Shown here one piece after another: positions 9,987 to 52,885 of a stretch of 64,000 nt of DNA (the first letter of the stretch is position 1; each line of letters starts with the position of its first letter). The notes beneath the pieces are model-generated. The model searched no databases and was not told where the DNA came from. It saw only the letters and a list, made by a program, of their open reading frames with translations. Made by a program: the position numbers and the translations under genes. Source of the DNA: Faecalibacterium sp. CAG:74 (lineage in GTDB: Bacteria > Bacillota > Clostridia > Christensenellales > Aristaeellaceae). The stretch covers positions 133,729 through 197,728 of the forward strand of contig FR899900.1 in the NCBI GenBank assembly GCA_000437595.1, given 5' to 3'.

Positions 9987-9991
9987 CCGAC

Positions 9992-10031: not shown

Positions 10032-10073
10032 TTTGCCGATTTTATCGAAGCAAACCGATGGTCGGTTTTTTTC

Positions 10074-21052: not shown

Positions 21053-21138
21053 GAGGGTAACTTCCGGATGAGGTAATGCAGCCGTCGCCTCCCGGACAAT
21101 GTGCAAAGGTTCGGCTGAAAGAGAAAAGGAGGATCTCT

Positions 21139-23919
21139 ATGAAACGATTTTTCCTGCTGCTGCTCGCTGCTATCATCGGGCTGCTGCCGCTGATGAGCGC
21201 CTGCGCTGAAGCGCCGCTGGACGGGTATCCCGGCATTGATGAGCTGCCCGCCATCGACACAATCAACAATCCATTTGAGTTTTTCGACGTGAAGAATGAC
21301 CCGAACGGCGACGGCATTGTGACCGACATCACCGAATGGGAAGCGCGCCGCACCGAAATCCGCGATTTGATCCAGCACTACTGGCTGGGCTACCGCTGGG
21401 AAACCGCGGCGGAGGACGTGTCTGGCAAGTACGAGATTGTCTACGAGGACAACACCGCGTCCTACGGCGGCTTCTATGGAATTTGGGGCACTTGCGTCTT
21501 CAACCTCGGCGACGAGTTCCGCAAGTTGTCCGCTGCGCTGCTGGAAGGTGAAGTGACGGTGGGCGACAAGACGTTCGGCCCTGCATCCACCAAGGCGGAA
21601 GCCAAGCAGCTTGCCATCGAGGCGTGGAACGCGGGCTACTCCGTCCACTACATTGGCGAACCGCCGTGGGGCACGGAAGGCGACGCGGTGTTCGTGAACA
21701 CCACCGGCGCGATTACCGCGGAAACCATCCCCGCCCGTGTGCGCCCCGTGTATCAGGCGGTCATTACCATCACGAATCCGGAAACGGGCGCAAAGGCGAG
21801 CTTCGCCGCGAAGCTGAATGTGCCCACGGATGCGCAGATTCTGGCGGCTTGGGGCGAAGAGAAGGATCAAGTACCGTTCGTGATTGATATCGGCGGTACC
21901 TCCGCATTCTCTGCTGCGAACTTGAACGGACAGGGCTACGGTCTGGTGACGTTCAAAGCCACTGACATTTACCCCGATGACTCCAATGCGGATGACGGCA
22001 TTGACCGTGCTGGCGTGTACACCACGCTCTACCCCTACGACGCGAACGACTACAAGCACGCATCCGGCGCACTGATGGCGTGGAGCTGGGCGGCCAGTCA
22101 GATTGTGACCGCCTTGGAAAACCAGGCAGAGGGCACGAGCCTGACGCTGGGCGAGCTGGTTCGCCTTGACCCGGCTAAGACCGTCATCACGGGTCATTCC
22201 CGCTACGGCAAGGCCGCCATGTTCACCTCGGCGTTTGACGACCGCATCAGCATCTGCGTGCCGAGCGAATGCGGCGGTTCGGGCATCCAGAGCTACCGCT
22301 ACAAGGTGGAAGGCAAGATTTTCAACTTCAACACCTCCGCCTACGCCAAGGCTGACCGTGTCTACGGCAAGACCGAAGTGCCGACCGTGTCCTACGGCAA
22401 GGGCAACAGCTGGTTCCCGGAGACGGCTGCTATGTTCGTCGCCCGTGACAACCAGATTCCGTTTGACCCGGTGGAAATCATCGCGCTGGTTGCGCCACGC
22501 CCCTTCTTCACCGTGTCAGGCATTGACACCCACTGGCTGGGCAATGAAGGCGCTGTCGCCAGCATGGTTGCAGCAGAAGAGGTTTACGATTTCGTCGGCA
22601 CGACGGAAATCGAGAAAAACAACATTGCTGTTCGTGCCCGCCAGAGTGACCACGTCTTCTACCCGCGTGACTTCTGCTTTGCGCTGGCGATTATGGATCG
22701 CGAATTCAAGCAGACGGACGACAAGCTGCTGCATGTGAAGGATCTGTTCCCGGAAGGCACTGGCATTTCCGGCATGTCCTACCCGGCGGCGGATTACGCA
22801 ACCATCAGCGAACTGAACGACTACCCGTTTGACATCAATTCTTCCTACATCCCGTGGTCTGCCGAAAGCAAGTACACGCTGTGGACGGCGCAGGAAACCT
22901 TCCTGACGAACCACAATGTTACCATTACCGCGCATTCCGACGCGCCCGACGTGGTGCTGGTGCTGCCGGACGGCAGGGAAGTCGCCGCCGCTTCGCACGA
23001 GGGTGACGTGTTCACCTTCACCTTGACTGCCGAACAGTCCGTCTACGGGCGCTACGAACTGCGCACCGTCGGCACGGACAAGGCGGCGCACAGCGTCTAC
23101 TTCTCCGCCGTTTCGCTGGCGGATGCGCTCCGTCACGGCACGACGAAGGGCGACGAGGGCGAAGAGAACCGCGTGCTGGGCTTCGCGTCCCGTCTGGCGA
23201 ACACGAAGGAGAATCCCCCGCTGGTCTACATCGGCAGCGAAACCGAACCCGCTTCTATGATTTTCACACCTGAACGTGTGGTGCCGGAAGACACGAGCCT
23301 GCTGGAATACGGCATTCTGTTCCACGACGCGCTGTTTATCCGCATTGCAAACGCTGGCTGGGACGCTTCGCAGACCTTCAAGGTGAAGAACCTGAAGTTT
23401 GTCTCCATGCCGGAATACACCTTCGAGTTCTCGATGGCGGACATTGCCGCTTCCGCTGAAAACAACGGCAAGCAGGATGCTGCGCTGTTCACCAAGCCGA
23501 TTTCTTGGAACGCTGAGCGCTACAACAACGGTTTCTCGCAGGTGTGGCCCGCGATTCCGGATACGCTGGAAGAGCGGCAGGCGCTTGAACGCGGCGAAAC
23601 CATCACCCGCCCCGAAGCGCCCGAAAAGACCGTGACCGCCTTTGACGCGACCGTCTCCGGCAAAGCGGCACTGTCGGACACCGCGCTGACCATCACGCTG
23701 ACCTTCTCCGAAGCGCTGCGCACGGGTGAATACGCTGTCGGCATGGACATTGCCGAAGCGTGGGAAACCGCGTGGAATGCGGACGGCACGCAGATGACGC
23801 TGACCGTCCCCGCGGACGCGCTGAATGGACAGCACACCGTGAACCTCATCATCTTCCGCCTGATGGATACCGATGGCAACCTCATCGGCGGTCCGGTGGA
23901 ACTGCATTTGGACTTCTAA
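21139..23919 (+). CDS. large secreted lipoprotein with a carbohydrate esterase family 15 (glucuronoyl esterase)-like catalytic domain
   Basis: The start was trimmed to MKRFFLLLLAAIIGLLPLMSAC (lipobox-like) after AAAGGAGGATCTCT. The motif TGHSRYGKAA matches the CE15 G-C/H-S-R-x-G nucleophile motif. The 927-aa protein carries extra N- and C-terminal beta-rich domains. Confidence 0.55.
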   Translation: MKRFFLLLLAAIIGLLPLMSACAEAPLDGYPGIDELPAIDTINNPFEFFDVKNDPNGDGIVTDITEWEARRTEIRDLIQHYWLGYRWETAAEDVSGKYEIVYEDNTASYGGFYGIWGTCVFNLGDEFRKLSAALLEGEVTVGDKTFGPASTKAEAKQLAIEAWNAGYSVHYIGEPPWGTEGDAVFVNTTGAITAETIPARVRPVYQAVITITNPETGAKASFAAKLNVPTDAQILAAWGEEKDQVPFVIDIGGTSAFSAANLNGQGYGLVTFKATDIYPDDSNADDGIDRAGVYTTLYPYDANDYKHASGALMAWSWAASQIVTALENQAEGTSLTLGELVRLDPAKTVITGHSRYGKAAMFTSAFDDRISICVPSECGGSGIQSYRYKVEGKIFNFNTSAYAKADRVYGKTEVPTVSYGKGNSWFPETAAMFVARDNQIPFDPVEIIALVAPRPFFTVSGIDTHWLGNEGAVASMVAAEEVYDFVGTTEIEKNNIAVRARQSDHVFYPRDFCFALAIMDREFKQTDDKLLHVKDLFPEGTGISGMSYPAADYATISELNDYPFDINSSYIPWSAESKYTLWTAQETFLTNHNVTITAHSDAPDVVLVLPDGREVAAASHEGDVFTFTLTAEQSVYGRYELRTVGTDKAAHSVYFSAVSLADALRHGTTKGDEGEENRVLGFASRLANTKENPPLVYIGSETEPASMIFTPERVVPEDTSLLEYGILFHDALFIRIANAGWDASQTFKVKNLKFVSMPEYTFEFSMADIAASAENNGKQDAALFTKPISWNAERYNNGFSQVWPAIPDTLEERQALERGETITRPEAPEKTVTAFDATVSGKAALSDTALTITLTFSEALRTGEYAVGMDIAEAWETAWNADGTQMTLTVPADALNGQHTVNLIIFRLMDTDGNLIGGPVELHLDF

Positions 23920-23968: not shown

Positions 23969-24077
23969 GTTCCCGGCAAACTTCATTTTCGCTTCCTCGT
24001 AACTTCACATTGGCTTCATCCAATTGTGTCATAATTGCTTCCGGAACATCCATGAGATGGAAGGAGTCAGAGGAACT

Positions 24078-24917
24078 ATGAAGAAGACTGGAAAAATCAT
24101 TGCCATCATCGTCGTGCTTGCGCTCGTCGTGAGCGGCGTTTTCCTTTTTGCGGGTGGACGGAAAAATGCGGCTTACAGCGAGGAAATCGCCCGCACGCAG
24201 GACATCAGCACCTATTACACCTTTTCCGGCAACCTGTCGACAAAGGACAGCCAAATCGTCACCTCCACCGCAAAAACAACCGTCAAAGAGTGCCTGTTCT
24301 CCGAGGGCGACGCGGTGAAGAAGAACGACATTATCCTCAAATTTTCAAGCGGCGGCACGGCACGCGCGCCGATGGACGGCACGCTCTCGAACCTCTACGT
24401 CGAGGAAGGCGACGAGGTGACCATGGGGCAGCAGCTGCTACGTGTCGCAGATTACAGCAATCCGCAGATTGTGTTCAACGTGGATGAATACGACCGTCCG
24501 GCGCTCTCCGTCGGGCAGGCGGCGGATGTGACCGTGCTGTCCACTGGCAAGATGCTCACCGGCACCATCACCCGCATTGCGCAGGAAGCAACCGTATCCG
24601 GCGACTTGGCGTACTACGAGGTGACGATGACCGTGCCGCAGGACGGAACGCTCGCCATGGGCTTGAGCTGCGAAATCCGCGTGCTGTACCAGAGCGTGAA
24701 GAACGTTACGACCGTGTCGATTGACGCGATTCAGTACGATTCGGACGGCAAGCCGTTCGTCTACTGCTACGACCGCAAGGACGATATTGTACAGCAGCGC
24801 GTGACACTGGGCATCAACAACGGCTCGATTGTCGAAATCGTCGACGGCATCCGCACGGGCGAAGCGGTGTTGATTCCCGTGAAGAACACAATGGAAATGC
24901 CCATGATGCATTATTGA
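24078..24917 (+). CDS. efflux transporter periplasmic adaptor subunit (HlyD/MacA family, membrane-anchored)
   Basis: The start was trimmed to MKKTGKIIAIIVVLALVVSGVFLF (TM anchor) after GGAAGGAGTCAGAGGAACT. It has biotin-lipoyl-like and beta-barrel segments and sits upstream of the ABC ATPase and permease. Confidence 0.75.
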   Translation: MKKTGKIIAIIVVLALVVSGVFLFAGGRKNAAYSEEIARTQDISTYYTFSGNLSTKDSQIVTSTAKTTVKECLFSEGDAVKKNDIILKFSSGGTARAPMDGTLSNLYVEEGDEVTMGQQLLRVADYSNPQIVFNVDEYDRPALSVGQAADVTVLSTGKMLTGTITRIAQEATVSGDLAYYEVTMTVPQDGTLAMGLSCEIRVLYQSVKNVTTVSIDAIQYDSDGKPFVYCYDRKDDIVQQRVTLGINNGSIVEIVDGIRTGEAVLIPVKNTMEMPMMHY

Positions 24918-24935
24918 CGGAAAGGGGCATTCACC

Positions 24936-25628
24936 ATGGCGGAAAATATTCTGACAATGGAGAACATCGTCAAAACATACAAAATGGGCGATGAACAGCA
25001 GACGGTTTTGAAGGGCATTGACCTGCAGGTGGACAAGGGCGAATTTGTCGCCATTCTTGGCCCCAGCGGGTCGGGCAAATCAACGCTGATGAACATCATT
25101 GGCTGTCTGGACACGGCAACATCCGGCACATACCACTTGCATGGGCGGGACGTATCCGCGCTGAGCGAATCGGAGCTGGCGCGCGTGCGGTCAAAGGAAA
25201 TCGGGTTCATCTTCCAGTCGTTCCAGCTGCTTCAGCGTCAGGACGCGCTGCAAAACGTGGAACTTCCGCTGATTTACGCGGGCATGAGCGGCCACGAGCG
25301 CGCCGCGCGGGCGCAGCAAATGCTGGAGCGCGTCGGTTTGAAGGACAAGATGCACCACTTTCCGAACCAGCTTTCCGGCGGACAGCAGCAGCGCGTCGCG
25401 ATTGCCCGCGCGCTGGCGAACAACCCGACCATTCTGCTGGCGGACGAGCCGACGGGTGCGCTTGACCGGGCGACGGGACGGCAGGTGATGAGCCTCTTCC
25501 ATGACCTGAACGACGAGGGGCGCACGATTATCATGATTACGCACGACATTGAGATTGCCCGCCACGCGCGGCGCATTGTGCGCATCCTTGATGGGGAAAT
25601 CAGTGAAGGAGTGGTGGAAGATGCTTAA
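24936..25628 (+). CDS. ABC transporter ATP-binding protein (MacB/LolD-like)
   Basis: Walker A GPSGSGKST, signature LSGGQQQRVAIARAL, and Walker B ILLADEPT. Confidence 0.9.
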   Translation: MAENILTMENIVKTYKMGDEQQTVLKGIDLQVDKGEFVAILGPSGSGKSTLMNIIGCLDTATSGTYHLHGRDVSALSESELARVRSKEIGFIFQSFQLLQRQDALQNVELPLIYAGMSGHERAARAQQMLERVGLKDKMHHFPNQLSGGQQQRVAIARALANNPTILLADEPTGALDRATGRQVMSLFHDLNDEGRTIIMITHDIEIARHARRIVRILDGEISEGVVEDA

Positions 25629-26811
25629 AGAGAGCATTCGCATGTCGTGGCAGAACATCCGCGGCAACAAAATGCGCACCTTCCTGACGATGCTGGGCAT
25701 CATCATCGGCGTGACAGCGATTATCGCGCTGATTACGACGGTCGGCAGCGCAACGGGCGAAATCACGAGTCAATTCTCTGCCTTGGGCGCAGGTAAAGTG
25801 AGCGTAAGCATCAGCGGCACAGCCATCAAGCATGGGCTGAACGAAAGCGACCTCGCGCACATTGCTGCGCTGGACAATGTGGCGGGTGTTGACCCAAATG
25901 TCTCCCTGCGCACCTATGCCGCGCAGGACGGTCAGCTTGTGGAGGATGTGACGCTGGAGGGGCGCAGCAACGACTATTTTTCCGTGCAGGATGACCTGAT
26001 TGGGCGCGGTCGGGCGCTGAAGGCGATTGACATGGATCGTTCGAGCCATGTTTGCATCATCGACCAGACCTTGGCGTCCGCTGCCTTCCCGAACGAAGAC
26101 CCGCTGGGGCAGTCGCTGATTCTGCACGGGCAGCAGTTCACCGTCGTCGGCGTGCTGAGCGAGGACAGCGGAAGCGACCTGATGGCTGCCATGTCTGCCA
26201 GCAGCGACGGCGGCAAGGCGATTGTCCCCTATCCGGCGGCGATGCGGCTGAGCGGCTCAAACACCGTGCGGTCGCTGACGCTGTACTTGAAGGACTCGTC
26301 GTTATCCTCCGAAACCGTCGACAATGTGAAGCAGCTGCTGGACAGCGCGTTCAACTACCGCGACAGCGCGTACTCCATCATCAATCTGGACAGCCTGCTG
26401 GATACGATGAACAGCATCACCGGCATGATGACGACGATGCTGGCGGGCATTGCGTCGATTGCCCTGCTGGTTGGCGGCATCGGCATTATGAACATGATGC
26501 TCGTCTCCGTCAGCGAGCGAACGACGGAAATCGGCCTGCGCAAGGCGCTCGGCGCGCGTCCGGGGCTGATTCAAATGCAGTTCCTGATGGAATCGGTCAT
26601 GCTGTCGCTCATGGGCGGGTTCATCGGCATACTGGTAGGCAATCTCGTCTCGTGGATGATTGCAATGGCGCTGGATATTACCTTCCAGCTCAACGCAGGC
26701 GCAATCACGCTGGCGTTCGTGTTTTCCGCCTCGGTCGGCATTCTGTTCGGCTGGGCACCCGCGCGCAAGGCTTCACGGCTGAATCCTATTGATGCTTTGC
26801 GGTCGATGTGA
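25621..26811 (+). CDS. ABC transporter permease, FtsX/MacB-type
   Basis: The start ATG overlaps the ATPase stop (ATGCTTAAAG). It has an N-terminal TM, a large extracytoplasmic MacB_PCD-like domain, and a C-terminal FtsX 3-TM bundle. Confidence 0.85.
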   Translation: MLKESIRMSWQNIRGNKMRTFLTMLGIIIGVTAIIALITTVGSATGEITSQFSALGAGKVSVSISGTAIKHGLNESDLAHIAALDNVAGVDPNVSLRTYAAQDGQLVEDVTLEGRSNDYFSVQDDLIGRGRALKAIDMDRSSHVCIIDQTLASAAFPNEDPLGQSLILHGQQFTVVGVLSEDSGSDLMAAMSASSDGGKAIVPYPAAMRLSGSNTVRSLTLYLKDSSLSSETVDNVKQLLDSAFNYRDSAYSIINLDSLLDTMNSITGMMTTMLAGIASIALLVGGIGIMNMMLVSVSERTTEIGLRKALGARPGLIQMQFLMESVMLSLMGGFIGILVGNLVSWMIAMALDITFQLNAGAITLAFVFSASVGILFGWAPARKASRLNPIDALRSM

Positions 26812-26846
26812 TATAATAGAAGCATCAGCACAAGGAGGTTTCCGCC

Positions 26847-27521
26847 ATGTTTACGATTCTGGTGGTTGAGGATGACGCGCCGCTGCAGCGGATGATGAGC
26901 GCGTTTCTGGGGTTGAACGGCTTTTCAGTCGTCGGGGCTGCCAACGGCGAGGAAGCGCTGAACGCCATCGACAAGGTGATGCCCGATCTGGTCATTGCCG
27001 ACGTGATGATGCCGGTGATGGATGGCTGGGAACTGACGCGTGAACTGCGCCGCTGCTATCCGCGCCTGCCCATCATGCTGGTGACGGCGCGCGACACCAT
27101 TGAGGACAAGCGGACGGGCTTCACCTCCGGCGCGGATGACTACCTGACCAAGCCGGTCGATTTGGACGAGCTGCTGCTGCATGTGCAAGCGCTGCTGCGG
27201 CGGTCGCAGGCCATGACGAGCCACCAATTGACCATCGGGCAGACGCACTTGGATTACGATTCGCTGACCGTGCAGCGCGGTGACACGCTGCTGACGCTGC
27301 CGAAGAAGGAGTTTTTCCTGCTCTTCAAGCTCCTGTCCAGCCCGATGCAGATTTTCACGCGCCGGCAGCTGATGGACGAAATCTGGGGCATGGATGCGCA
27401 GAGCGACGAACGCACGGTGGACGTACACATCAAGCGTCTGCGCGAAAAGTGCGAGATTTTCCCTGATTTCAGCATCGTGACAGTGCGCGGCTTGGGCTAC
27501 AAGGCGGTCAAGAATGGATAA
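26847..27521 (+). CDS. OmpR-family response regulator
   Basis: ILVVEDD, DVMMP receiver motifs and a winged-helix C-terminus (SIVTVRGLGYK). RBS AAGGAGG. Confidence 0.9.
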   Translation: MFTILVVEDDAPLQRMMSAFLGLNGFSVVGAANGEEALNAIDKVMPDLVIADVMMPVMDGWELTRELRRCYPRLPIMLVTARDTIEDKRTGFTSGADDYLTKPVDLDELLLHVQALLRRSQAMTSHQLTIGQTHLDYDSLTVQRGDTLLTLPKKEFFLLFKLLSSPMQIFTRRQLMDEIWGMDAQSDERTVDVHIKRLREKCEIFPDFSIVTVRGLGYKAVKNG

Positions 27522-28893
27522 GCGCCGCATCATCCGCAAACCGTACTCCTTCCGCGGGCGCATGATTGCGGCGCTGATGATTGGCTCGCTGCTGGCAACC
27601 GTCATCAGCCTGTTTCTCGCCTTCTGCGTGACGCACATCAACCTCTTGCAGGAACTGAAAGTGCGTGAGCGCGCCGTCGCCATCTACCTGATGGAACTGG
27701 AACAGCGCACGGAGCTGAGAACAGACGAATTAGCCCGCTTGGTGGAGCAGAACGGCATCGAAGTCGCTGTGCTGTCGGACGAGGATGTCGCTGCCCTGTC
27801 CGCGGGCACGCAGCGGGAGCTGAAACGCGCGGGCATTGCCTACGAATCGACGACGTGGAAATCGCAGCGAAATCCGGTAACGTATGTGCAGATGCGCACA
27901 GGCGTCCTTGCAATTACCGCTGGCGGCGACGGCAGCAGCTACGGCATCGCGTTTGCGCGCATTATCTTCGGCTCAACCAGCTTTCTGGCAGTCTTTGCGC
28001 TGATGGTGACGCTGGCATCCTCCTGGATTTCCAAGCCCGTTCATGAAATCACGAATGCGACTCGCAAGGTCAAAGAGGGCGACTTCACCGTCAAACTGGA
28101 TGCCGCCCACGCGCCGGGCGAAATAGAGGAACTCATGCGTTCCTTTAACGCCATGACCGACGCGCTCAGCCGAACGTCCTACCTGCAGAAAGACTTCATC
28201 AGCTCCATCAGCCACGAATTCAAAACGCCGATTGCGTCCATCCGAGGCTTTGCGCGGCTGCTGCAAATGCCCGGCTTGACCGAGGCGCAGCGGCAGGAAT
28301 ATGTGGACTTAATTGCGCAGGAAAGCGACCGCTTGTCGCGCCTGTCGCAGACGCTGCTGCGCCTGTCCGCGCTGGAGCAGCAGTCCGCGCCCGCGTCGCT
28401 GAAGGAGTTTTCGCTGGATGAGCAGCTTCGTCAGGTCATCCTGCGCTTAGAACCGACATGGAGCGCGCGCGGCATCAGCTGGCAGCTGGATTTGAACAGC
28501 GTTACCGTCGTGTCGGACGAAGAGCTGCTCAGCCACGTCTGGATGAACATCATCCAAAACGCCATCAAGTTTTCGCCGGAGAATGCAGTTATCGAGGTGC
28601 GCGTGTTCGCCACAGATACGGCGACCGTTGAGATTACCGACCACGGCATCGGCATGGACGACGCGACCGTGAAGCGCATTTTCGACCGTTTCTATCAGGC
28701 AGACCGATCCCGCAAGCAGGAGGGTGTCGGCTTAGGGTTGTGCCTCGTCAAGCGGATTTTGGATATGCTTGGCGGCACAGTATCGGTTGACTCGCGCCCC
28801 GGCGAAGGCTCCACCTTCCGCATCCACGTCCCTTTCCGGCCCAAATATGATGAGGCCGCACACACTGGCGAAAGAGAGGGTAAAAGCCCATGA
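27514..28893 (+). CDS. sensor histidine kinase (TM-HAMP-HisKA-HATPase_c)
   Basis: H-box SHEFKTPIASI, with N, G1 (DHGIGMD) and G2 boxes. Its start overlaps the regulator stop. Confidence 0.9.
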   Translation: MDKRRIIRKPYSFRGRMIAALMIGSLLATVISLFLAFCVTHINLLQELKVRERAVAIYLMELEQRTELRTDELARLVEQNGIEVAVLSDEDVAALSAGTQRELKRAGIAYESTTWKSQRNPVTYVQMRTGVLAITAGGDGSSYGIAFARIIFGSTSFLAVFALMVTLASSWISKPVHEITNATRKVKEGDFTVKLDAAHAPGEIEELMRSFNAMTDALSRTSYLQKDFISSISHEFKTPIASIRGFARLLQMPGLTEAQRQEYVDLIAQESDRLSRLSQTLLRLSALEQQSAPASLKEFSLDEQLRQVILRLEPTWSARGISWQLDLNSVTVVSDEELLSHVWMNIIQNAIKFSPENAVIEVRVFATDTATVEITDHGIGMDDATVKRIFDRFYQADRSRKQEGVGLGLCLVKRILDMLGGTVSVDSRPGEGSTFRIHVPFRPKYDEAAHTGEREGKSP

Positions 28894-29567
28894 ACACCGA
28901 TTCGCAGCATCTTCAGCAGGTCAGCGAGGAATTTCAGCGCATGGTGGAGGAATTTTTTCTGGTGCAGTCGCGCTACTCCGCCGCAATCAAGGAGATTCAG
29001 ACGAAGCTCGAAATCCTTGATGACGAGTTCCAAATGCGTCATCGCCGCAATCCCATCCACCACATGCAGAGCCGGCTGAAAACCATCCAGTCGATGCTGG
29101 AGAAGCTAAAGCGCAAGAACTACGAAGTCAGCATCAACAGCGCCGTCAAAAACTTGCAGGATATTGCCGGCATCCGCGTTATCTGCTCGTATGTGCAGGA
29201 CGTGTATACCATTGCGAACCTGCTGGTCAGCCAAGACGACGTGCATTTGGTTCGCATGGCGGATTACATCCGCGAGCCGAAACCGAACGGCTACCGCAGT
29301 CTGCATTTGATTGTTGAAATTCCTGTTTTTCTCTCCGAAGGGCGGATTCTTGTACCCGTCGAGGTGCAGATTCGCACGATTGCCATGGACTTCTGGGCTT
29401 CGCTGGAGCATTCGCTCCGCTACAAGGCGCAGGAGTACATTCCGCAGCACATTTCCGACGAATTGCAGCGCGTCGCGACGGACATTGCATCCCTTGACCA
29501 GCGGATGCAGGCGATTCACGATCAGGTGGACGAGCTGAGCGACGCGCGCAGTGACAACGCCACATAA
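28890..29567 (+). CDS. small alarmone synthetase, RelA/SpoT-domain GTP pyrophosphokinase (RelQ/RelP/YjbM-YwaC class)
   Basis: 225 aa single-domain protein with GIRVICSY, YRSLHLIV and EVQIRT synthetase motifs and no hydrolase domain. Its ATG overlaps the kinase stop (ATGA). Confidence 0.85.
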   Translation: MNTDSQHLQQVSEEFQRMVEEFFLVQSRYSAAIKEIQTKLEILDDEFQMRHRRNPIHHMQSRLKTIQSMLEKLKRKNYEVSINSAVKNLQDIAGIRVICSYVQDVYTIANLLVSQDDVHLVRMADYIREPKPNGYRSLHLIVEIPVFLSEGRILVPVEVQIRTIAMDFWASLEHSLRYKAQEYIPQHISDELQRVATDIASLDQRMQAIHDQVDELSDARSDNAT

Positions 29568-29589
29568 TATGATTTCCAGAGGTGAAGAC

Positions 29590-30264
29590 ATGGAACAGTA
29601 CCCGAAGAAACTGCCACCGCAGGTGGACAGCCGTCTGCGGCACAGTATCCTTGAAATGCCCATAGAAATCCGCAAGGCAAGCGGCATCGTGATTTACGGG
29701 CGCCGCATCAAGAGCCTTGTTTTTACGACCGATTTGGCGATTATCAAGAACTGCGACGCGGACGCGGTGTTCGCCGTCTATCCATTCACGCCGCAGCAGT
29801 CCATCAGCGATGCGATTATCAAAGCGTCCTATATTCCCGTTTTCTGCGGCGTGGGCGGCGGAACGACGCAGGGGCTTCGCACCGTTTCGCTCGCGAAGGA
29901 TGCCGAAGCGCAGGGGGCAATGGGCGTTGTGCTGAATGCGCCCGTATCGAACCTGAATCTGCTCGCGGTCTCGAAGGCGGTGGACATTCCTGTCATCATC
30001 ACCGTGATTGACGAAGTGACCGACATTGGACAGCGGATTGCATCCGGTGCGTCGATTCTCAACGTCGCGGGCGGGGCGAATACCCCGGCGATTGTGCGAA
30101 AAATTCGCACGGAGTACCCGGATTTTCCGATTATCGCCACCGGCGGCAATAAGCCAGATACCATCGCCGCGACGGTTGCGGCAGGCGCGAACGCGATTAC
30201 GTTTACGCCGCCATCCGCACAGGAACTGTTCAAAGCGATGATGACCCGTTATCGGGACGAGTAA
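29590..30264 (+). CDS. hypothetical protein, predicted phosphate-binding TIM-barrel-like fold
   Basis: 224 aa. The alternating beta-alpha pattern ends in IIATGGNKPDTIAATVAAGANAITF, reminiscent of the ribulose-phosphate-binding barrel phosphate clasp. No confident family assignment is possible from sequence alone. Confidence 0.45.
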   Translation: MEQYPKKLPPQVDSRLRHSILEMPIEIRKASGIVIYGRRIKSLVFTTDLAIIKNCDADAVFAVYPFTPQQSISDAIIKASYIPVFCGVGGGTTQGLRTVSLAKDAEAQGAMGVVLNAPVSNLNLLAVSKAVDIPVIITVIDEVTDIGQRIASGASILNVAGGANTPAIVRKIRTEYPDFPIIATGGNKPDTIAATVAAGANAITFTPPSAQELFKAMMTRYRDE

Positions 30265-30324
30265 AAAGTGCATAAAAGCCCGGCAATCAGCCATACTATC
30301 CGTATCAACAGGAGGTGTCGTTTG

Positions 30325-30756
30325 ATGCTGGGCTTTCTTTCTGCAATTCTGGCAGGCGCGGCGATGAGCGTGCAGGGCGTAATGAACACGCGCCTTGGCG
30401 AAAAGGTGGGTACGCTGGAGACGAACGCATTTGTGCAGCTGATCGGTTTTTTGCTGGCGCTGCTCATCGCGGTTTTCTTCGGCAAAGGCAACATCCGACT
30501 ATTGCCGCAAGCGCCGTGGTATGCGTGGCTGGGCGGTGTACTCGCGCCGGTTATCACGCTGACAGTGATGTGGGCGATTGGCAGCCTGACACCGACGGTC
30601 GCAATTTCCGCAATTTTGCTCTCACAATTGACCGTTGCCGCGCTGATTGACGTATTCGGCTGGCTGGGCGCGGAGAAAATGCCGTTCTCGTGGGAGAAGT
30701 GGGTCGGCGTGGCGCTGATGGTGGGCGGTGTCATCCTGATGAAAATCAAGACGTGA
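30325..30756 (+). CDS. DMT-superfamily small membrane transporter (DUF606/YdcZ-like)
   Basis: 143 aa with four hydrophobic helices. The start was trimmed to ATG 30325 after CAGGAGGTGTCGTTTG. Confidence 0.6.
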   Translation: MLGFLSAILAGAAMSVQGVMNTRLGEKVGTLETNAFVQLIGFLLALLIAVFFGKGNIRLLPQAPWYAWLGGVLAPVITLTVMWAIGSLTPTVAISAILLSQLTVAALIDVFGWLGAEKMPFSWEKWVGVALMVGGVILMKIKT

Positions 30757-30904
30757 TACGGCAAACGCGCGGAAATCAGCAGGATTCCGGGCGATTTTCC
30801 GCGAACGCTTCTGACCCATGCGACAAACACAGCCATTTTTCTTCGCAGGAAACAGGCAATCAAATGGCGAAACCTCCTGCGCAGAAAAACAGGAGGTACT
30901 TTTT

Positions 30905-31231
30905 ATGCTGCAATCCATCCGCGATGGCGATCGGCTGATTGTGCGCATCGGCGGCGAGCTCGACCACTTCTGCGCACAGAGCGTTCGCCGCGACTTAGAC
31001 GCGCTGCTGCTTGACCGCTCCGTCCGCACGCTGATTCTGGACTTCTCGTCGCTGACGTTCATGGACTCCTCCGGCATCGGGGTTGTCCTGGGGCGCTATC
31101 GGCTGCTGCGCGACCGGGGCGGGCACGTCGCGATTGTGGGCATGAACCCGCACATCGCTCGGCTATTCCACATGTCCGGGCTTGACCGGATTATCCGCCA
31201 GCTGGACAAGCATCAGGAGGCGCAAGCATGA
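30905..31231 (+). CDS. spoIIAA: anti-sigma factor antagonist, STAS domain (SpoIIAA-like)
   Basis: 108 aa, close to SpoIIAA throughout (LDFSSLTFMDSSGIGVVLGRY). RBS ACAGGAGGT. Confidence 0.85.
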   Translation: MLQSIRDGDRLIVRIGGELDHFCAQSVRRDLDALLLDRSVRTLILDFSSLTFMDSSGIGVVLGRYRLLRDRGGHVAIVGMNPHIARLFHMSGLDRIIRQLDKHQEAQA

Positions 31232-31665
31232 GCCATCACAACGAAATGGAAATCCGATTTCTCTCCCTGCCCGAAAACGAAGCCTTCGCGCGCGTCGTGA
31301 TTGCCGCCTTTGCCGTCCAGCTCTCCCCGACTGTCAGCGAAATTGCCGACATCAAGACCGCCGTCTCCGAAGCTGTCACGAACGCCATCGTCCACGGTTA
31401 CGAGGGCACGCGCGGCACGGTTATCCTGCGCGCAAGCATTGACGGCACGCTGCTGACCATTGAAATCACCGACAAGGGACGCGGCATCGCCGACATTCCG
31501 CAGGCGATGGAGCCGTTTTTTACCACGCACCCCGAACAGGAACGAAGCGGCATGGGTTTTGCCGTCATGCAGACGTTCATGGACGACCTGCGCGTTACAT
31601 CCACTCCCGGTCAGGGCACAACCGTGCGGATGAAGAAGCGGATTCTGACGACGCCGATTATGTAA
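31228..31665 (+). CDS. spoIIAB: anti-sigma F factor / serine-protein kinase (SpoIIAB-like)
   Basis: 145 aa, with strong similarity to SpoIIAB over its full length (ESFARV.., TAVSEAVTNAIVHGYE, ERSGMGFAVMQTFMDDL). Its start overlaps the spoIIAA stop. No sigma gene follows. Confidence 0.85.
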   Translation: MSHHNEMEIRFLSLPENEAFARVVIAAFAVQLSPTVSEIADIKTAVSEAVTNAIVHGYEGTRGTVILRASIDGTLLTIEITDKGRGIADIPQAMEPFFTTHPEQERSGMGFAVMQTFMDDLRVTSTPGQGTTVRMKKRILTTPIM

Positions 31666-31672
31666 AAGAAAT

Positions 31673-31706
31673 GGACTGCTCCGCATTTGAGAGCAGTCCA
31701 TTTTCT
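31673..31706. terminator. bidirectional rho-independent terminator
   Basis: AAATGGACTGCTC..GAGCAGTCCATTTT hairpin between convergent genes. Confidence 0.75.
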
Positions 31707-32935
31707 TATGCTTTTTTCTGCTTGCGAATGTCAAGCACCGCGTCGAGGATATCCTCAGCGAGCTGCTTTTTCGTCCGCAGCGGATACTCGGTCTGGCTGT
31801 CCGGCGTGATGAGCGTGGCAATGTTCGTATCAACATTGAATCCTGCGCCGGGCTGGCTGACGTCGTTCAGAACAATCAGGTCAAGATGCTTGCTTTCCAG
31901 CTTCCGATGCGCGTTTTGGAGCAGGTTCTCCGTTTCCGCCGCGAAGCCGACAAGCACCTGCCCCGGCCTTTTCGCCGCACCGACCGCCGCCGCAATATCC
32001 GGGTTCTCCACCAGCTCGACAACGAACGGCTGTCCGTCGTGCGCCTTCTTGTGCTTCTGCGGATACGTCACGGCGAAGCGGTAATCCGCCGGAGCCGCCG
32101 CTTGAATCACAACGTCCATGTCGGGCGCAGTCGTCGTGACCGCGTCGAACAAATCCTGCGTGCTTTCCACACGGCGGATGTCAATGCCGTCCGGCACGGG
32201 CGCTGTTGTGCTGCCCGCAATCACCGTCACCTGCGCGCCGCGGTTTCTCGCCGCCTCAGCAAGGGCAAAGCCCATTTTGCCGGAGGAATCATTGGTCATG
32301 TAGCGCACAGGGTCAAGGCGTTCGCGCGTTGCCCCTGCTGTCACCAGCACACGCAGACCCGCGAAATCGCGCTTCGGGCAGAGCAGGGAGACAATCGCGC
32401 GCACGATGGTTTCCGGCTCACTCATGCGGCCCGCACCCGTATCGCCGCACGCCAAAAAGCCCGCTTCCGGCCCTGCAAAATGCACGCCGCGGGCTTTCAA
32501 GGTCTGCACGTTCTGCTGCGTCACCGCTGCCGTCCACATGCCGGTGTTCATGGCAGGGGCAAGCAGAATCGGCGCTTTCGTCGCCAAGACGGTGGTGGAC
32601 AGCATATCGTCCGCAATGCCGCACGCCATCTTCGCCATGATATTCGCCGTCGCGGGCGCAATGGCAAAAACATCCGCGCGTTTCGCCAGCGCGATATGCT
32701 CCACCTCCCATGTCTCCGGGCGCGCGAACGTGTCCGTGACGACGGGATGGTTGCTCAGCGTTTCAAACGTCAGCGGCTGCACAAACTGCGCCGCGTTTTT
32801 CGTCATGATGACGTGCGTCTCCACGCCGAGCTTGCGCAGACGGGAGACAATTTCGCAGCTCTTGTAGACCGCGATGCCGCCCGTTACGCCCAGCACCACA
32901 TGCCGCCCGCGCACGTCGGGAAGTTCACAGCACAT
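31706..32935 (-). CDS. coaBC: bifunctional phosphopantothenoylcysteine decarboxylase / phosphopantothenate-cysteine ligase
   Basis: 409 aa with an N-terminal flavoprotein domain (GVTGGIAVYK) and a C-terminal DFP ligase domain. Confidence 0.9.
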   Translation of the reverse strand: MCCELPDVRGRHVVLGVTGGIAVYKSCEIVSRLRKLGVETHVIMTKNAAQFVQPLTFETLSNHPVVTDTFARPETWEVEHIALAKRADVFAIAPATANIMAKMACGIADDMLSTTVLATKAPILLAPAMNTGMWTAAVTQQNVQTLKARGVHFAGPEAGFLACGDTGAGRMSEPETIVRAIVSLLCPKRDFAGLRVLVTAGATRERLDPVRYMTNDSSGKMGFALAEAARNRGAQVTVIAGSTTAPVPDGIDIRRVESTQDLFDAVTTTAPDMDVVIQAAAPADYRFAVTYPQKHKKAHDGQPFVVELVENPDIAAAVGAAKRPGQVLVGFAAETENLLQNAHRKLESKHLDLIVLNDVSQPGAGFNVDTNIATLITPDSQTEYPLRTKKQLAEDILDAVLDIRKQKKA

Positions 32936-33158
32936 CGACGTCCTGATCCTCGTTTTCGTCGTTCGGTTCGTCGTAGGTAATCAGACCACGGTTGATTTCC
33001 TCCACCGCCGTCTTAAGCGGCTTCATGCCTTCATTGTCCAGCAGGGGCTTGCTGCCGCCGATAATCTGACGGCCGCGCTTGCTCGCCTCCACCACGAGGG
33101 TATAGCGGGAATCAGCGTGCTTGAGCAGCTCCAGAACGCAGGGTTCGACAATCGACAT
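32925..33158 (-). CDS. rpoZ: DNA-directed RNA polymerase subunit omega
   Basis: 77 aa, and the conserved gmk-rpoZ-coaBC gene order. Confidence 0.8.
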   Translation of the reverse strand: MSIVEPCVLELLKHADSRYTLVVEASKRGRQIIGGSKPLLDNEGMKPLKTAVEEINRGLITYDEPNDENEDQDVDVL

Positions 33159-33212
33159 AGGGTGTTCCTCCTTTTATGTTCAGCCGCAATTGCGGCAGGA
33201 AACGCTTTTATC

Positions 33213-33815
33213 TTACTCCGGGATTTCAACGGTGTAGCGCGCCGTGTTGTAGCGCTCCGCCTCGATGATGCCTGCAATCCGCGCAGCACAGGCGGCTACG
33301 TCATCGTTGATGACATTGTAGCGGTAGTGATTTTTGAGGGCGATTTCGCGCACGGCGATTTCCTGCCGCATGGCGATCTGCTCCGGCGATTCCGTGCCGC
33401 GCCCTTCCAGACGGCGGTGCAGCTCCGACATGCTCGGCGGCAGGATGAAGATGCTCACGCAGTCCTTCTCGCGCGCAATCACCTGCTCCGCGCCCTGCAC
33501 GTCAATATCCAGTACGACATTCTGCCCCTGCGCCAAGCGGCGGCTAACCTCACTGCGGAGCGTGCCGTAGTGGTGAGCGAACACCGGCGCATACTCAATG
33601 AACTCATCGTTTTCGACGCGGCGCGCAAATTCCTCTTCGCTGATGAAGTAATATTCGCGCCCGTTTTCCTCGCCCGGACGGGGCGAACGGGTCGTTGCGC
33701 TGACAGAAAAAACCAGTGAATCGTCATGCGCCATCAATTCCTTGATGACGGTGCCCTTCCCGGTGCCGGACGCGCCGGAAATGACCAGCAGCATACCCTT
33801 TCGTGCTTCACTCAT
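33213..33815 (-). CDS. gmk: guanylate kinase
   Basis: P-loop GASGTGKGT and guanylate kinase motifs. The start was trimmed to MSEARKGMLLVISG. Confidence 0.9.
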   Translation of the reverse strand: MSEARKGMLLVISGASGTGKGTVIKELMAHDDSLVFSVSATTRSPRPGEENGREYYFISEEEFARRVENDEFIEYAPVFAHHYGTLRSEVSRRLAQGQNVVLDIDVQGAEQVIAREKDCVSIFILPPSMSELHRRLEGRGTESPEQIAMRQEIAVREIALKNHYRYNVINDDVAACAARIAGIIEAERYNTARYTVEIPE

Positions 33816-33840
33816 GTTGCCATTCCCCTTCATGCTGGTA

Positions 33841-34710
33841 TCACACCGCATTTTGAATCTGTTCGCGCATCTTTTCAATCTCGCTCTTGAGATTGACGAC
33901 GTTCTGCGCCATTTGCGCGTCGGAGCATTTGCTGCCAATGGTGTTGGCTTCGCGGTTCATTTCCTGAATCAGGAAATCCATCTTCTTGCCCGTTTCGCCG
34001 GATACATCCAGATACACATGCATCTGCGCGATGTGGCTTTCGAGGCGCGACAATTCCTCGTCGATGGCGCATTTGTCCGCCATCAGCGCAACCTCCTGTG
34101 CCAGCCGCGCCGGGTCAACGGGTTCAATCGGCAGACGCGCCAGCCGTTCGGTCAGGCGCAGCCGGTATTCCTCCACCACCTGCGGGGCACGCGACGCAAT
34201 CTGCTCCCGCAGCGCCGCCGCCGCATCCAGGTGCACCTGCAAATCATCCCGCAGATGTGTCCCTTCGCGGATGCGCATGTCCGTGAGGTGCTGCATCGCC
34301 AGCGCCGTCACTTCGCGGCACTGTGCGGTGAGTGCTTCTTCATCCAGCGCACGTTCCGTCACAGTCGTCACGCCGTCGAGCTGCATCAGGCGGCTGACGG
34401 TCAGGTCATTCGCCGCGCCCGTCGCCGCTTGCAGCGTATTTGCCGCCTGCATGTACGCCGCGGCAAGCGTCTCATCCACCGTCACATCGCTGTCAGAACC
34501 GCTGATGCGCCGGAGTGTCAGCTGCACGTCCACATGTCCGCGGCAAAGCGGCGCAAGCGTCTTGCGAATCGTTTCCTCCAGGAAGGTCAGACCGCGACCG
34601 AGCCGCATGGACAAGTCCAGAAAGCGATGGTTCACCGCCCGAAGCTCCACTGTCATCTCCCAGTCGCCCTGGCGAGATGTCTCCTTGCCATATCCGGTCA
34701 TGCTCTGCAT
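33841..34710 (-). CDS. yicC: YicC/YloC family endoribonuclease
   Basis: MQSMTGYGK N-terminus and a YicC_N plus DUF1732 C-terminal domain. RBS GGGGAGGG. Confidence 0.85.
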   Translation of the reverse strand: MQSMTGYGKETSRQGDWEMTVELRAVNHRFLDLSMRLGRGLTFLEETIRKTLAPLCRGHVDVQLTLRRISGSDSDVTVDETLAAAYMQAANTLQAATGAANDLTVSRLMQLDGVTTVTERALDEEALTAQCREVTALAMQHLTDMRIREGTHLRDDLQVHLDAAAALREQIASRAPQVVEEYRLRLTERLARLPIEPVDPARLAQEVALMADKCAIDEELSRLESHIAQMHVYLDVSGETGKKMDFLIQEMNREANTIGSKCSDAQMAQNVVNLKSEIEKMREQIQNAV

Positions 34711-34910
34711 CCGGCAATCCCTCCCCTTCAGAAAATTTATTATACCACGTCCCGCCGCACTTTGCAAGTAGTTTCCCGTATTTGCGCGACTTCAGCTTTT
34801 TCGCATTGCAATCTTGACACGCAGTCGGTACGGTGTTATACTTTGGAACATCCGCGTATGTTTTTTCTTTGTTTTTCGCCAATTTGTCATGCGCAGGGAG
34901 GATGCAGCCC

Positions 34911-47270: not shown

Positions 47271-48473
47271 TTATTTATTCAGGCTGAAGCGGAACGTGTA
47301 GCCTTCTTCGCCGTAATGCTCATTGCCAACCCACAGCACCGTCTTGTCCGTGAGGTTATAGACGGCAGAGTGAATCGTCAGCGAGTTGGAATCGCCCGGA
47401 TTGCCCCAGTCGCGGCGGCTGACCGCATCGAGCAGACCCATCGCCGCTTCTTCGTCCGCCACGACGCCATTCAACTCCGCCAGACGGTCGCGCAGAAGCT
47501 CGTAGCGGTCAAGACCCGGTTTGTTCGCGTCCGCCGTGTAGTAATCCGGCGTGATGATGAAGTTGGTAATCATCTGCCAGTCCGTCGCGCCGGAGAGCGG
47601 ATCAGCGTCGTTCCAGATGACGTTCAAGTGGCGGTTCGCGCCGTCCGCATCGTCGTCACTGCTGTCAGACACCCACTCCAGAATCGCGCTCTTGCCCGTG
47701 GAATCCGCAATCATATAATGGAAGCTCGTCTTCGCGGAGTCGTGCAGGTCGTACTTTTCCACCAGTTCGACCGCTTCTTCAACGGAGTCGGCGTAGTCCA
47801 GAACCATGCGGAGCATCGTGGTCGAGGTCAAATCCGGCTTGTCGGTCTGCTGATTCGTCGCGGCGACCTTCTCTCCGCCCTGATAGGACATGAAGATGCC
47901 GCACGCCACGCCCGCGTCATTCACGCCATCCAGCGGCGCAAAAGGAGCGGCAAGCGTGAGAATCTTCTGCCCGAAGGTGGTCACGTCCTTCGTGCTGTCT
48001 AAGCCGAGGAACTGCAAGTCCACCGTGGAATAGGAAGCATGACGTCCGTTGCCCGGATTCGTGTAGACGATGACGGTGTTCGTCTCGTGGAAATCGTAGT
48101 TGCGGCCGAAAACGCGGTCGCCGTCCGCCGTATCCGCGGTGAAAGCGGAGCAGGCGATTTCAGAGGTTTTGATGCTCATGGGGATAATGCCCTTGGTGAT
48201 GCTGTTCGTGATAAAGGAGATAAGCTCCGTGTCATTGGACGCGCCGCCCTGCGCCAGGAACTCATCGAAATGGTAGCCGCCGGAGACATTCAGCACATAC
48301 ACCGAGCCATCCTTATGGCTTTCATCGCGCTGCGTCACCTGCTGAAAGGACAGCAGCGTTGTGATTTCGTCGTGCCAGATGACGTAGACCGTGCCCACCA
48401 GCACGATCACCAGCGCCAGCAGGACGCCGAGGATGGTCAGCAATACTTTCTTCGCGGTTGATTTCTTCTTCAT
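47271..48473 (-). CDS. choloylglycine hydrolase family (linear amide C-N hydrolase, Ntn) protein with N-terminal membrane anchor and pro-region
   Basis: N-terminal TM helix (VLLTILGVLLALVIVLVGTV). A Cys-Ser-Ala-Phe-Thr ... GRNYDF block matches the catalytic Cys plus the GRN(L/M)D motif of bile-salt hydrolase/penicillin V acylase, here about 106 residues into the protein. Confidence 0.7.
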   Translation of the reverse strand: MKKKSTAKKVLLTILGVLLALVIVLVGTVYVIWHDEITTLLSFQQVTQRDESHKDGSVYVLNVSGGYHFDEFLAQGGASNDTELISFITNSITKGIIPMSIKTSEIACSAFTADTADGDRVFGRNYDFHETNTVIVYTNPGNGRHASYSTVDLQFLGLDSTKDVTTFGQKILTLAAPFAPLDGVNDAGVACGIFMSYQGGEKVAATNQQTDKPDLTSTTMLRMVLDYADSVEEAVELVEKYDLHDSAKTSFHYMIADSTGKSAILEWVSDSSDDDADGANRHLNVIWNDADPLSGATDWQMITNFIITPDYYTADANKPGLDRYELLRDRLAELNGVVADEEAAMGLLDAVSRRDWGNPGDSNSLTIHSAVYNLTDKTVLWVGNEHYGEEGYTFRFSLNK

Positions 48474-49643: not shown

Positions 49644-49865
49644 CAAGCGTTCTTCGCATTTTCCCGCTTTTTTTCCGAAGATTCCAAAAACACAAGGCTG
49701 AAACAAGCAGGAAATTTCGATTTCTTGGCGAATTAAACTGATGGATGAGCAGAGACAGCCCTGCAAGCCATCCAAATAACATGTTGTGTTCCCCGTTCCT
49801 GTTGGTTCCGGGTGTACTTTTTGTGTTCCTTGGCAGAACGCTTTTTGAGGGAGGTGAGCGGTGCC

Positions 49866-51734: not shown

Positions 51735-52850
51735 TTGACGCTTTCGCAGAATGGCCGTCCGTCACCGCTTGACGAACTGTACGAATACGCAAAAAACAAA
51801 GGCACGATCACTTATCAGGAAGTGACCGATCGTCTGGGCAATACTTTTTTTGAGGCCGATCAGCTGGAGAAGGTGCTGGACAAGCTGGAGAGTCTGGGCG
51901 TGACCGTGGTGGATTCCGCGGAAATCCCGGATACATCCCCCGCTGCCATGGAAGTGCCCGATCCCGCGCTGAACGACGACCTGAGCGAAGCTGATGTCAT
52001 TTCCGCCGACGACCCGGTGCGCATGTATCTGAAGGAAATCGGGCGCATTCCGCTGCTAACGAGCGAAGCGGAAATTGAAGTTGCCAAGCAGCTGGAAAGC
52101 GACGACCCCGCCATCCGCAACGAGGCGAAACGCCGCCTGAGCGAAGCGAACCTGCGCCTTGTCGTGTCGATTGCCAAGAAGTACGTTGGGCGCAGCAAGA
52201 ACTCCATGAGCCTGCTCGACCTGATTCAGGAGGGCAACCTCGGGCTGATGAAGGCCGTGGAGAAGTTCGACTACACCAAGGGCTTCAAGTTCTCCACCTA
52301 CGCGACGTGGTGGATTCGGCAGGCTATCACCCGCTCGATTGCCGATCAGGCGCGTACCATCCGCATCCCCGTGCACATGGTGGAAACAATTAACCGCATC
52401 GTGCGCGTGAACCGCCAGCTTCAGCAGAAGCTGGGGCGTGAGCCGCGCCCGGAGGAAATCGCAAAGGAACTGGGCATCAGCGTGAGCAAGGTGCAGGAAA
52501 TCATCAAGATTGCGCAGGAGCCGGTGTCGCTCGAATCCCCGATTGGCGAGGAGGAGGACAGCCACCTCGGCGACTTCCTCGAAGACGACAAGACGCCGCC
52601 GCCCTCCCAGATTGTGGCGGAAAGCATGATGAAGCAGACGCTTTCCGATGTGCTGCACATGCTGACGCCGCGCGAAGAGCAGGTCATTCGGATGCGCTAC
52701 GGGCTGGATGACGGTCAGCAGCGTACGCTGGAGGAAGTTGGCAAGGCGTTCAACGTCACCCGCGAGCGCATCCGCCAAATTGAGGTGAAGGCGCTGCGCA
52801 AGATTAAGCGCCCGAACATGTCCAAGAATCTGGTGGACTACATGGATTGA
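51735..52850 (+). CDS. RNA polymerase sigma factor, group 1-like (RpoD family) diverged paralog
   Basis: Complete regions 1.2, 2.1-2.4, 3 and 4.2 ([63 protein letters not shown]). It has an SKNSMS insertion in region 2.1 and a divergent C-terminal tail. Proposed TTG start at 51735 after AAGGAGAG. Confidence 0.85.
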
Positions 52851-52885
52851 TGATTCCCTGTTGGGCTGAAGGGAGTGGATTCCGC

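Follow-up and report, generated by a model that had tools for sequence, protein, structure and literature searches.

Our analysis of a 64 kb stretch of DNA from 'Faecalibacterium sp. CAG:74' (hereafter the window; G+C content 58.9 %) revealed a pair of adjacent genes, spoIIAA and spoIIAB, that is kept under purifying selection although the sigma factor gene sigF has been lost from its ancestral position beside them. Together, SpoIIAA, SpoIIAB and sigma-F form the cell-fate switch that textbooks describe for endospore formation; the trio is treated as an inseparable signature of spore-formers. The explanation that we prefer, which we hold tentatively and at somewhat less than an even chance, is that a working SpoIIAA–SpoIIAB pair has outlived its adjacent sigma gene and may now act on a partner encoded elsewhere, in a lineage without known sporulation.

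Identity of SpoIIAA and SpoIIAB

Both proteins passed the cut-offs of the NCBIfam equivalog models for the sporulation regulators. SpoIIAB scored 199 bits against TIGR01925 (anti-sigma F factor; cut-off 135, E 3e-59) in an alignment of near full length, which placed residues 5–139 of 145 on positions 1–136 of the 137 in the model. SpoIIAA scored 117.1 bits against TIGR02886 (anti-sigma F factor antagonist; E 3e-34), a marginal pass of the cut-off of 114.75, and 85 bits against Pfam STAS (cut-off 22.6). Among solved structures, the top matches were Geobacillus stearothermophilus SpoIIAB (1til/1l0o) at 142 bits, compared to 55 bits for RsbW, and SpoIIAA (1th8_B) at 90 bits. The N box (EAVTNAIVHG), G1 (DKGRGI) and G2 (ERSGMGF) motifs of the window SpoIIAB and the arginine in NEAFARV are identical to those of G. 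stearothermophilus SpoIIAB; the functional roles of these motifs, including that of the N-terminal helix arginine, are well established. SpoIIAA carries the phosphorylatable Ser56 in FMDSSGIG and Glu18 in GELDH, both aligned to residues of 1th8_B, and the role of Glu21 of SpoIIAA has been described previously (PMC7340262).

The initial annotation had recognized both proteins along their full length and had allowed that they might instead be RsbV/RsbW. The recognition holds, with both equivalog cut-offs passed and the solved-structure matches in agreement. The RsbV/RsbW identity was rejected, as the RsbW models scored far under their cut-offs (NF003144, 69.3 versus 145 bits; TIGR01924, 57.6 versus 155 bits) whereas the SpoIIAB model scored far above its own. 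On these scores and motifs the pair are assigned as true SpoIIAA and SpoIIAB orthologues. As proteins they are ordinary, and both are already correctly named in public annotation. The start of spoIIAB overlaps the stop of spoIIAA (ATGA), an arrangement that indicates translational coupling, and an AGGAGG ribosome-binding site lies ahead of spoIIAA at 30891–30896 (Table 1).

Table 1. Features of the spoIIA locus and its boundaries (positions in the window)
Feature	Position	Strand	Description	Basis
Leader and putative promoter of the pair	30757–30904	+		Alignment of 23 upstream regions
spoIIAA	30905–31231	+	STAS-domain anti-anti-sigma factor, 108 amino acids (aa)	TIGR02886, Pfam STAS
spoIIAB	31228–31665	+	GHKL-type serine kinase/anti-sigma factor, 145 aa	TIGR01925, Pfam HATPase_c_2
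Hairpin	31669–31703		14 bp stem, 7 nt loop, T-rich on both sides	Terminator scan and sequence
coaBC	31706–32935	−	Convergent to spoIIAB; rearrangement boundary, outside the module	TIGR00521, 459 bits

Absence of sigF downstream of spoIIAB

The locus does not have the three-gene operon ending in sigF. As the initial annotation stated, no sigF follows spoIIAB, and a hairpin and the convergent coaBC stand in its place. The hairpin begins four bases past the spoIIAB stop, at the site where sigF starts in relatives, and is likely to be a bidirectional terminator, although the background of the terminator scan was high (3 found, 2.8 expected) and the hairpin therefore counts as a consensus match only.

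Searches of the window with tblastn using Thermoanaerobacterium SigF (locus L041) returned only two rpoD-type genes, at approximately 52.1–52.8 and 53.3–53.9 kb. The same two genes, and no fragments, were all that was found across the 64 kb with 16 sigF-like proteins of close relatives (E ≤1). Nearly the whole 64 kb was covered by Pfam and gene tables, which contained no other sigma factor, no PP2C/SpoIIE phosphatase and no recognizable sporulation gene, and spo0A, spoIIE, sigE, sigG and sigK were found neither in the 64 kb nor in one 20 kb locus of the genome. The two sigma genes of the window were rejected as candidates for sigF, sigE or sigG, as both are full-length RpoD-type primary sigma genes with regions 1.1 to 4 that lie after dnaG. 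They form a tandem (51735–52850 and 52850–53986, plus strand; 371 and 378 aa) behind dnaG (49812–51653), 20 kb from the spoIIA pair. These RpoD paralogues are 66 % identical, and the first copy is the more diverged (over the C-terminal 240 aa, it scores 439 bits on PRK09210 and the second 500 bits).

Public assemblies contain the identical SpoIIAB in 17,744 index blocks, and its protein cluster has 750 members. Gene order was the same in all 10 of the independent contigs with identical SpoIIAB that were inspected, four of them 1.3–3.4 Mb in length: efflux ABC, response regulator and histidine kinase, RelA_SpoT, a hypothetical gene, DMT, STAS, kinase and the convergent coaBC–rpoZ–gmk–yicC. The initial annotation had allowed for a sigF gene immediately beyond an assembly gap. 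A gap at the spoIIAB/coaBC junction is excluded, because one order was seen in all 10 contigs, four of them >1 Mb; the junction region of the window sequence itself has no Ns and no gaps.

Ancestral operon and repeated loss of sigF

Relatives were scanned with one genome per species, which gave 80 loci. Around the window family, an upstream block (MFP, ABC, FtsX, response regulator, histidine kinase, RelA_SpoT, DMT, STAS and IIAB) is conserved, and in >25 loci from related metagenome-assembled genomes (MAGs) the block, STAS and IIAB are followed by a sigF-like gene. In most family loci this sigma gene, of 223–241 aa, begins at or overlaps the spoIIAB stop, and past it lie a convergent deoD, sometimes a small ferredoxin gene, and then radical-SAM and TetR genes. 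The window retains the radical-SAM and TetR genes further on, with coaBC–rpoZ–gmk–yicC (minus strand) and brnQ (plus strand) between them and spoIIAB in place of sigF, the occasional ferredoxin gene and deoD. By this comparison, spoIIAA–spoIIAB–sigF is the ancestral arrangement in this Christensenellales family.

The sigma gene is absent after spoIIAB in the window species and in loci L011, L012, L022, L026 and L062. L012 (SpoIIAB identity 87 %) shares the coaBC junction of the window, and L011 (89 %) has serine dehydratase genes downstream. In L022 and L026 spoIIAB directly abuts the ferredoxin/deoD genes, and in L062 it is followed by unrelated genes. When five flanking proteins were concatenated for a neighbour-joining tree, the sigF-less loci fell on four separate branches (the window/L011/L012 clade, L022, L026 and L062), each with sigF-bearing sisters, and the four branches have four different junctions. 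Aligned with its sister L020, L022 shows a collinear 686 bp deletion that takes the sigF ORF (open reading frame) and nothing else. Pseudogene remnants of sigF were also sought and rejected, with no fragment at E ≤1 in the window or in any sigF-less locus. Because of the four branches, the L022 deletion and the lack of remaining fragments, sigF has been lost from this position at least four independent times within the family. In the window lineage and its two nearest sampled species, it was removed together with the downstream deoD. The L011 scaffold, from a sister species, contains a run of Ns approximately 2 kb downstream of the junction.

The conserved yicC–gmk–rpoZ–coaBC string of the window (31706–34767, minus strand) stops at spoIIAB, with no continuation into priA. 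In Bacillus, this string runs on into priA. The end of the string marks a rearrangement breakpoint exactly at the former position of sigF.

Where sigF-like genes survive in the family they are strongly diverged. Their proteins scored 79–167 bits on the SigF equivalog TIGR02885 (cut-off 321) and fell below the SigB/F/G subfamily cut-off as well, and their NCBI name is merely 'sigma-70 family'; the sigF of a Christensenella locus scored 309 bits on the same equivalog. The ratio of non-synonymous to synonymous substitution rates (dN/dS) of the sigF-like gene was approximately 0.18–0.20 in most pairs, about twice that of spoIIAB, and 0.05–0.09 in three pairs with low dN. The sigF-like gene is thus the fast-evolving component of the operon, yet one that is still constrained.

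Individual loci add further variation. In L025 the sigF-like gene (6438–7130) matches the SigF model over its N-terminal half only, at 79 bits, a sign that this sigma gene may be decaying. One ORF of 372 aa in L087 (5986–7104) continues from spoIIAB into sigF, a possible fusion or a sequencing frameshift. In L018 the sigF-like gene has two genes right behind it (7198–10406, minus strand), one for a soluble phosphatase of 388 aa with a PP2C/SpoIIE domain and one for a 681 aa sensory protein of [FeFe]-hydrogenase-like type, and this phosphatase could act in the partner switching of the family.

The same-strand string that the initial annotation listed as ending in the pair (efflux pump, two-component system, alarmone synthetase, TIM-barrel, DMT, STAS/kinase) was found as described, and is conserved family synteny, present with or without sigF. 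In the window its upstream part (24024–30756, plus strand) comprises a MacB-type ABC efflux system (MFP, ABC, FtsX), an OmpR-type response regulator, a HAMP histidine kinase, RelA_SpoT and DMT_YdcZ, in an order that is kept across the whole family directly 5' of spoIIAA (loci L011–L045, L062 and L093). The small alarmone synthetase (RelA_SpoT, YjbM-like) scored 181 bits, under the cut-off of 320. The 224 aa aldolase-like gene (29590–30264; TIM-barrel, with weak matches only) is present in the window clade only.

Selection on the pair

Among three sigF-less species of the window clade, dN/dS was 0.09–0.12 for spoIIAA and 0.085–0.11 for spoIIAB (dS 0.7–1.1), values that are approximate as dS near 1 approaches saturation. 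This range is that of sigF-bearing lineages and of the neighbouring response regulator, RelA_SpoT and DMT genes. Conserved positions were taken as those with ≥90 % conservation in sigF-linked homologues, the SpoIIAB set (n=39) including Geobacillus, Thermoanaerobacterium and Christensenella. The window SpoIIAB was unchanged at 65/65 of these positions, and SpoIIAA was unchanged at 31 of 33 with two conservative changes. The six sigF-less loci together showed three SpoIIAB changes at conserved positions, all of them hydrophobic or small-residue swaps. The ORFs of the pair are intact across all 10 contigs and three species.

Because dN/dS is approximately 0.1 at a dS of approximately 1 and the conserved positions are intact, the pair is maintained under purifying selection after the loss of sigF and is not decaying. 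Long after that loss, selection has preserved the kinase and the phospho-acceptor as well as, to the extent that conservation tells, every functional surface.

Promoter region

Alignment of 23 upstream regions gave columns of ≥80 % conservation at TGTCGAA, followed by AGG, GAAT and AGGAGG. The family layout is TGTCGAA, GCAGGA (−35-like), 12 nt, NNGAAT, AGGAGG and ATG. TGTCGAA is the consensus Spo0A box, and the GCAGGA/NNGAAT arrangement fits the sigma-H consensus. In the window the Spo0A box is eroded to CCGCGAA (30799–30805; 5/7 matches), and a reverse near-box, TGCGACA, lies at 30819–30825. The −35-like element GCAGGAAAC (30845–30853) is a good match, and the −10-like element GGCGAAACC (30866–30874) follows after a 12 nt spacer with GAAT changed to GAAA. 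The boxes of the window clade are degraded in different ways (CCGCGAA, TTGCGAA and GGACGAA; 5/7 matches each), and the final T of GAAT is gone in all three. The younger sigF-less loci L022 and L026 retain both the Spo0A box and GAAT.

We infer a wiring of the classical spoIIA type for the ancestral operon, and a drift of this wiring in the window clade. The drift suggests that expression of the pair may no longer be tied to Spo0A in the ancestral way. The layout conserved in the rest of the family (upstream regions of L013–L093) implies that its reportedly non-sporulating members may still drive the operon by Spo0A and sigma-H.

Searches for sigF elsewhere in the genome

A search of 5.8 billion proteins with a 23-sequence profile of the sigF-like proteins of the family (profile A1) returned only other species among the best 120 matches. 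The sigF-like clusters among these matches have at most 101 members, compared to 750–1555 for the species' own proteins, which is a weak hint that this species has no such gene. A scan of JGI metagenomes with the same profile gave, among the matches listed, only generic spoIIAB–sigF or sigE–sigG loci of unrelated Firmicutes.

The deoD gene, the neighbour of sigF in relatives, is not found in the window. The MAGs that contain the window proteins do carry it, as their common accession series (HCI51xxx, MDR393xxxx, MEE00xxxxx and MCI5932xxx) show, at a new locus of the order uvrB, suhB-like, deoD and gdh. No sigma gene lies within 10 kb on either side of it. The idea that sigF had moved together with its neighbour was rejected, because the deoD locus is free of sigma genes over that distance. 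Given this sigma-free locus and the in-place deletions in L022 and L026, the genome probably lacks a sigF orthologue.

Sporulation context

The cultured members of the order (Aristaeella hokkaidonensis, A. lactis, Luoshenia, Christensenella and Beduinella) have all been described as non-sporulating (PMC12694931). Of 19 human Christensenellales MAGs in a machine-learning survey, 18 were classed as non-sporulating (PMC12536801), and the supplement of the survey lists human CAG-74 MAGs among the non-sporulating ones. Published statements on sporulation in CAG-74 were otherwise indirect. Many asporogenous clostridia retain Spo0A along with incomplete sets of sporulation genes (Galperin et al. 2022 preprint; PMC3533761), and every known spore-former has all four sporulation sigma factors (Galperin et al. 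2022 preprint). The organism studied here most likely forms no endospores.

The initial annotation had proposed that sigF was lost or relocated, possibly in a non-sporulating lineage that keeps the module. Loss from the ancestral position stands, as does the non-sporulating character of the lineage's cultured members (PMC12694931), and loss from the genome as a whole is probable. Its alternative, a module rewired to a non-sigma output, is weighed below. Its statement that sigF is the third gene in every spoIIA operon was too strong, since the asporogenous Eubacterium rectale is tabulated without sigF and spoIIAA, with the operon partly kept (Galperin et al. 2012, PMC3533761, Table 5). Because of this listing, retention of part of the operon after loss of sigF has a precedent.

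At another site of the window, lepA (5702–7507, plus strand) is preceded by genes for a LytS-type histidine kinase and an AraC-type response regulator, and a hemN-like gene lies at 8844–9986 (plus strand). Bacillus and C. difficile carry the sporulation genes gpr and spoIIP at this lepA-adjacent site. The lepA neighbourhood hints weakly at an absence of other sporulation genes.

Alternative explanations for the retained pair

Under the preferred explanation, SpoIIAB would still phosphorylate SpoIIAA on Ser56 and would still sequester a partner encoded elsewhere, which unphosphorylated SpoIIAA would release. This partner would most likely be another sigma factor of the sigF/sigG/sigB family, with sigma-G as the obvious candidate; B. 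subtilis SpoIIAB binds sigma-G as well as sigma-F. A sigma-type partner elsewhere is favoured because no surface of SpoIIAB appears to be relaxed. Several points weigh against this explanation. The dN/dS values are approximate for the reason given above, and the perfect conservation of SpoIIAB argues for a sigma-type partner but identifies none. The absence of sigF covers the 64 kb window and one 20 kb locus, so that a relocated sigF, sigG or neither is possible, and the best 120 matches of the profile search are uninformative on this species. Sporulation was predicted for one swine CAG-74 MAG (PMC12536801), MAGs of the CAG-74 family reportedly carry spo0A (PMC11874851), and sporulation somewhere in the family is possible.

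The pair could instead have been kept for a target other than sigF or sigG, such as a tandem RpoD paralogue, an enzyme or another regulator, and this rewired output we consider somewhat unlikely. Repeated loss of the sigma gene under continued purifying selection on the pair is easiest to understand if its value is independent of sigF, and the strong divergence of the surviving sigF-like genes (79–167 bits against a cut-off of 321), the eroded Spo0A box of the window clade and the unusual tandem of 66 % identical rpoD paralogues 20 kb away point in the same direction. Other phyla are known to have partner-switching modules whose output is not a sigma factor, and control of sigma-66 by RsbW has been proposed in Chlamydia. 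However, none of the 65 conserved SpoIIAB positions has changed, when lost sigma binding should relax at least some of the surface; the pair has no linked candidate partner, its conserved neighbours being those of sigF-bearing relatives as well; and a correlation of the rpoD duplication with loss of sigF is not in evidence. A broader form of the idea, which we regard as rather unlikely, is that the SpoIIAA–SpoIIAB switch has a conserved sigma-F-independent role across the family, acting on a housekeeping-type sigma paralogue (the tandem RpoD) or on a non-sigma target in vegetative gut life. Such a role would explain why sigF is deleted repeatedly while the switch stays constant.

A simple relocation, in which the operon was split and an intact sigF elsewhere leaves the circuit and possibly sporulation unchanged, would account for a rearrangement placed exactly at the junction, with the coaBC block in the position of sigF–deoD and coaBC parted from its usual neighbour priA. 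It would also fit the perfect conservation of SpoIIAB, the fact that deoD did move and the limited extent of sequence (the 64 kb window and one 20 kb locus) over which sigF is known to be absent. Relocation is nevertheless unlikely: there is no sigma gene within 10 kb of either side of the new deoD locus, the in-place deletions of L022 and L026, made with no rearrangement, indicate that loss is tolerated in the family, the Spo0A box is eroded and, as weak evidence, no species-sized cluster was present among the best 120 sigF-like matches. That the pair is a decaying relic of a lost sporulation programme, with its deletion still pending, would suit an asporogenous lineage from which sigF is gone, and asporogenous clostridia commonly have incomplete sets of sporulation genes (PMC3533761; 2022 preprint). 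This is highly improbable in view of a dN/dS of approximately 0.1 over a dS of approximately 1 since the loss, unchanged conserved positions, intact ORFs in 10 contigs and three species, and a retained ribosome-binding site and translational coupling. An artefact, whether a misassembly or contig break that hides sigF or a misnamed RsbV/RsbW pair, has a negligible probability. Nothing was found in its favour, the junction is free of Ns and gaps, it recurs in identical form in 10 independent assemblies (including 3.4 Mb contigs) and in the species of L012, and the RsbW scores lie far under, and the SpoIIAB scores far over, their cut-offs.

Host and other genes of the window

Exact matches to the window proteins carry the NCBI names 'Faecalibacterium sp. 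CAG:74' and those of Christensenellales, Christensenellaceae or Clostridiales MAGs, and the nearest homologues are annotated as Christensenellales or Aristaeellaceae. Because of these protein names and closest-homologue annotations, the host is placed in the uncultured CAG-74/Aristaeellaceae group of the Christensenellales, and is not a Faecalibacterium. Rfam and tRNA scans of the window found nothing. The window also encodes a 947 aa secreted protein with a fungal-type glucuronoyl esterase domain (GCE_fung; 21076–23919, plus strand) and a gene of the choloylglycine (bile-salt) hydrolase family (47271–48473, minus strand), which are gut-adaptation traits of an abundant uncultured species.

Significance and comparison with known systems

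A very abundant human-gut lineage thus keeps both regulators, under strong selection, with the sigma gene no longer adjacent. This points to a sigma-F-independent use of the switch, via sigma-G or another partner, and if the target proved to be independent of sporulation, this would be the first SpoIIAB-type anti-sigma factor of its kind. SpoMAG reportedly found spoIIAB in every MAG predicted to sporulate. The presence of spoIIAA or spoIIAB in metagenome surveys is not evidence of sporulation capacity, and caution is needed in their use as markers for MAGs. The sister genomes with and without sigF offer a natural series for the dismantling of a developmental circuit.

Compared to the canonical spoIIA operon of Bacillus and Clostridium, the window has SpoIIAA and SpoIIAB orthologues in which every catalytic and phospho-acceptor motif is present, their genes are coupled, and the Spo0A box and sigma-H-like promoter are visible in its relatives. 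It differs in that the third gene, sigF, is missing, the Spo0A box and the GAAT of the −10 element are eroded, and the host lineage is not known to sporulate. The RsbV–RsbW–SigB system of the Bacillota has the fold and class of mechanism in common with the pair, but the pair lies outside that family (RsbW models 58–69 bits against cut-offs of 145–155; PDB RsbW 55 bits against 142 for SpoIIAB). Partner-switching modules without a dedicated alternative sigma factor include RsbW/RsbV of Chlamydia, BtrW/BtrV of Bordetella and HsbA/HsbR of Pseudomonas. These resemble the window pair in joining a GHKL serine kinase to a STAS antagonist with no adjacent cognate sigma gene, whereas they are RsbW/RsbV-like and belong to other phyla, and the window pair are strict SpoIIAB/SpoIIAA orthologues whose sigma gene was recently lost.

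A parallel in the gut is E. rectale (PMC3533761), an asporogenous clostridial lineage with Spo0A in which sigF was lost and parts of the operon were kept. In contrast, the window clade keeps both SpoIIAA and SpoIIAB, purifying selection on them is demonstrated by their substitution rates, and the loss recurs independently within one family. Three aspects of this locus are new: a pair that is kept under selection without sigF beside it, a recurrent deletion of sigF within the family in which the sigF-like gene is the rapidly diverging component, and an erosion of the Spo0A-type promoter in the oldest of the sigF-less clades.

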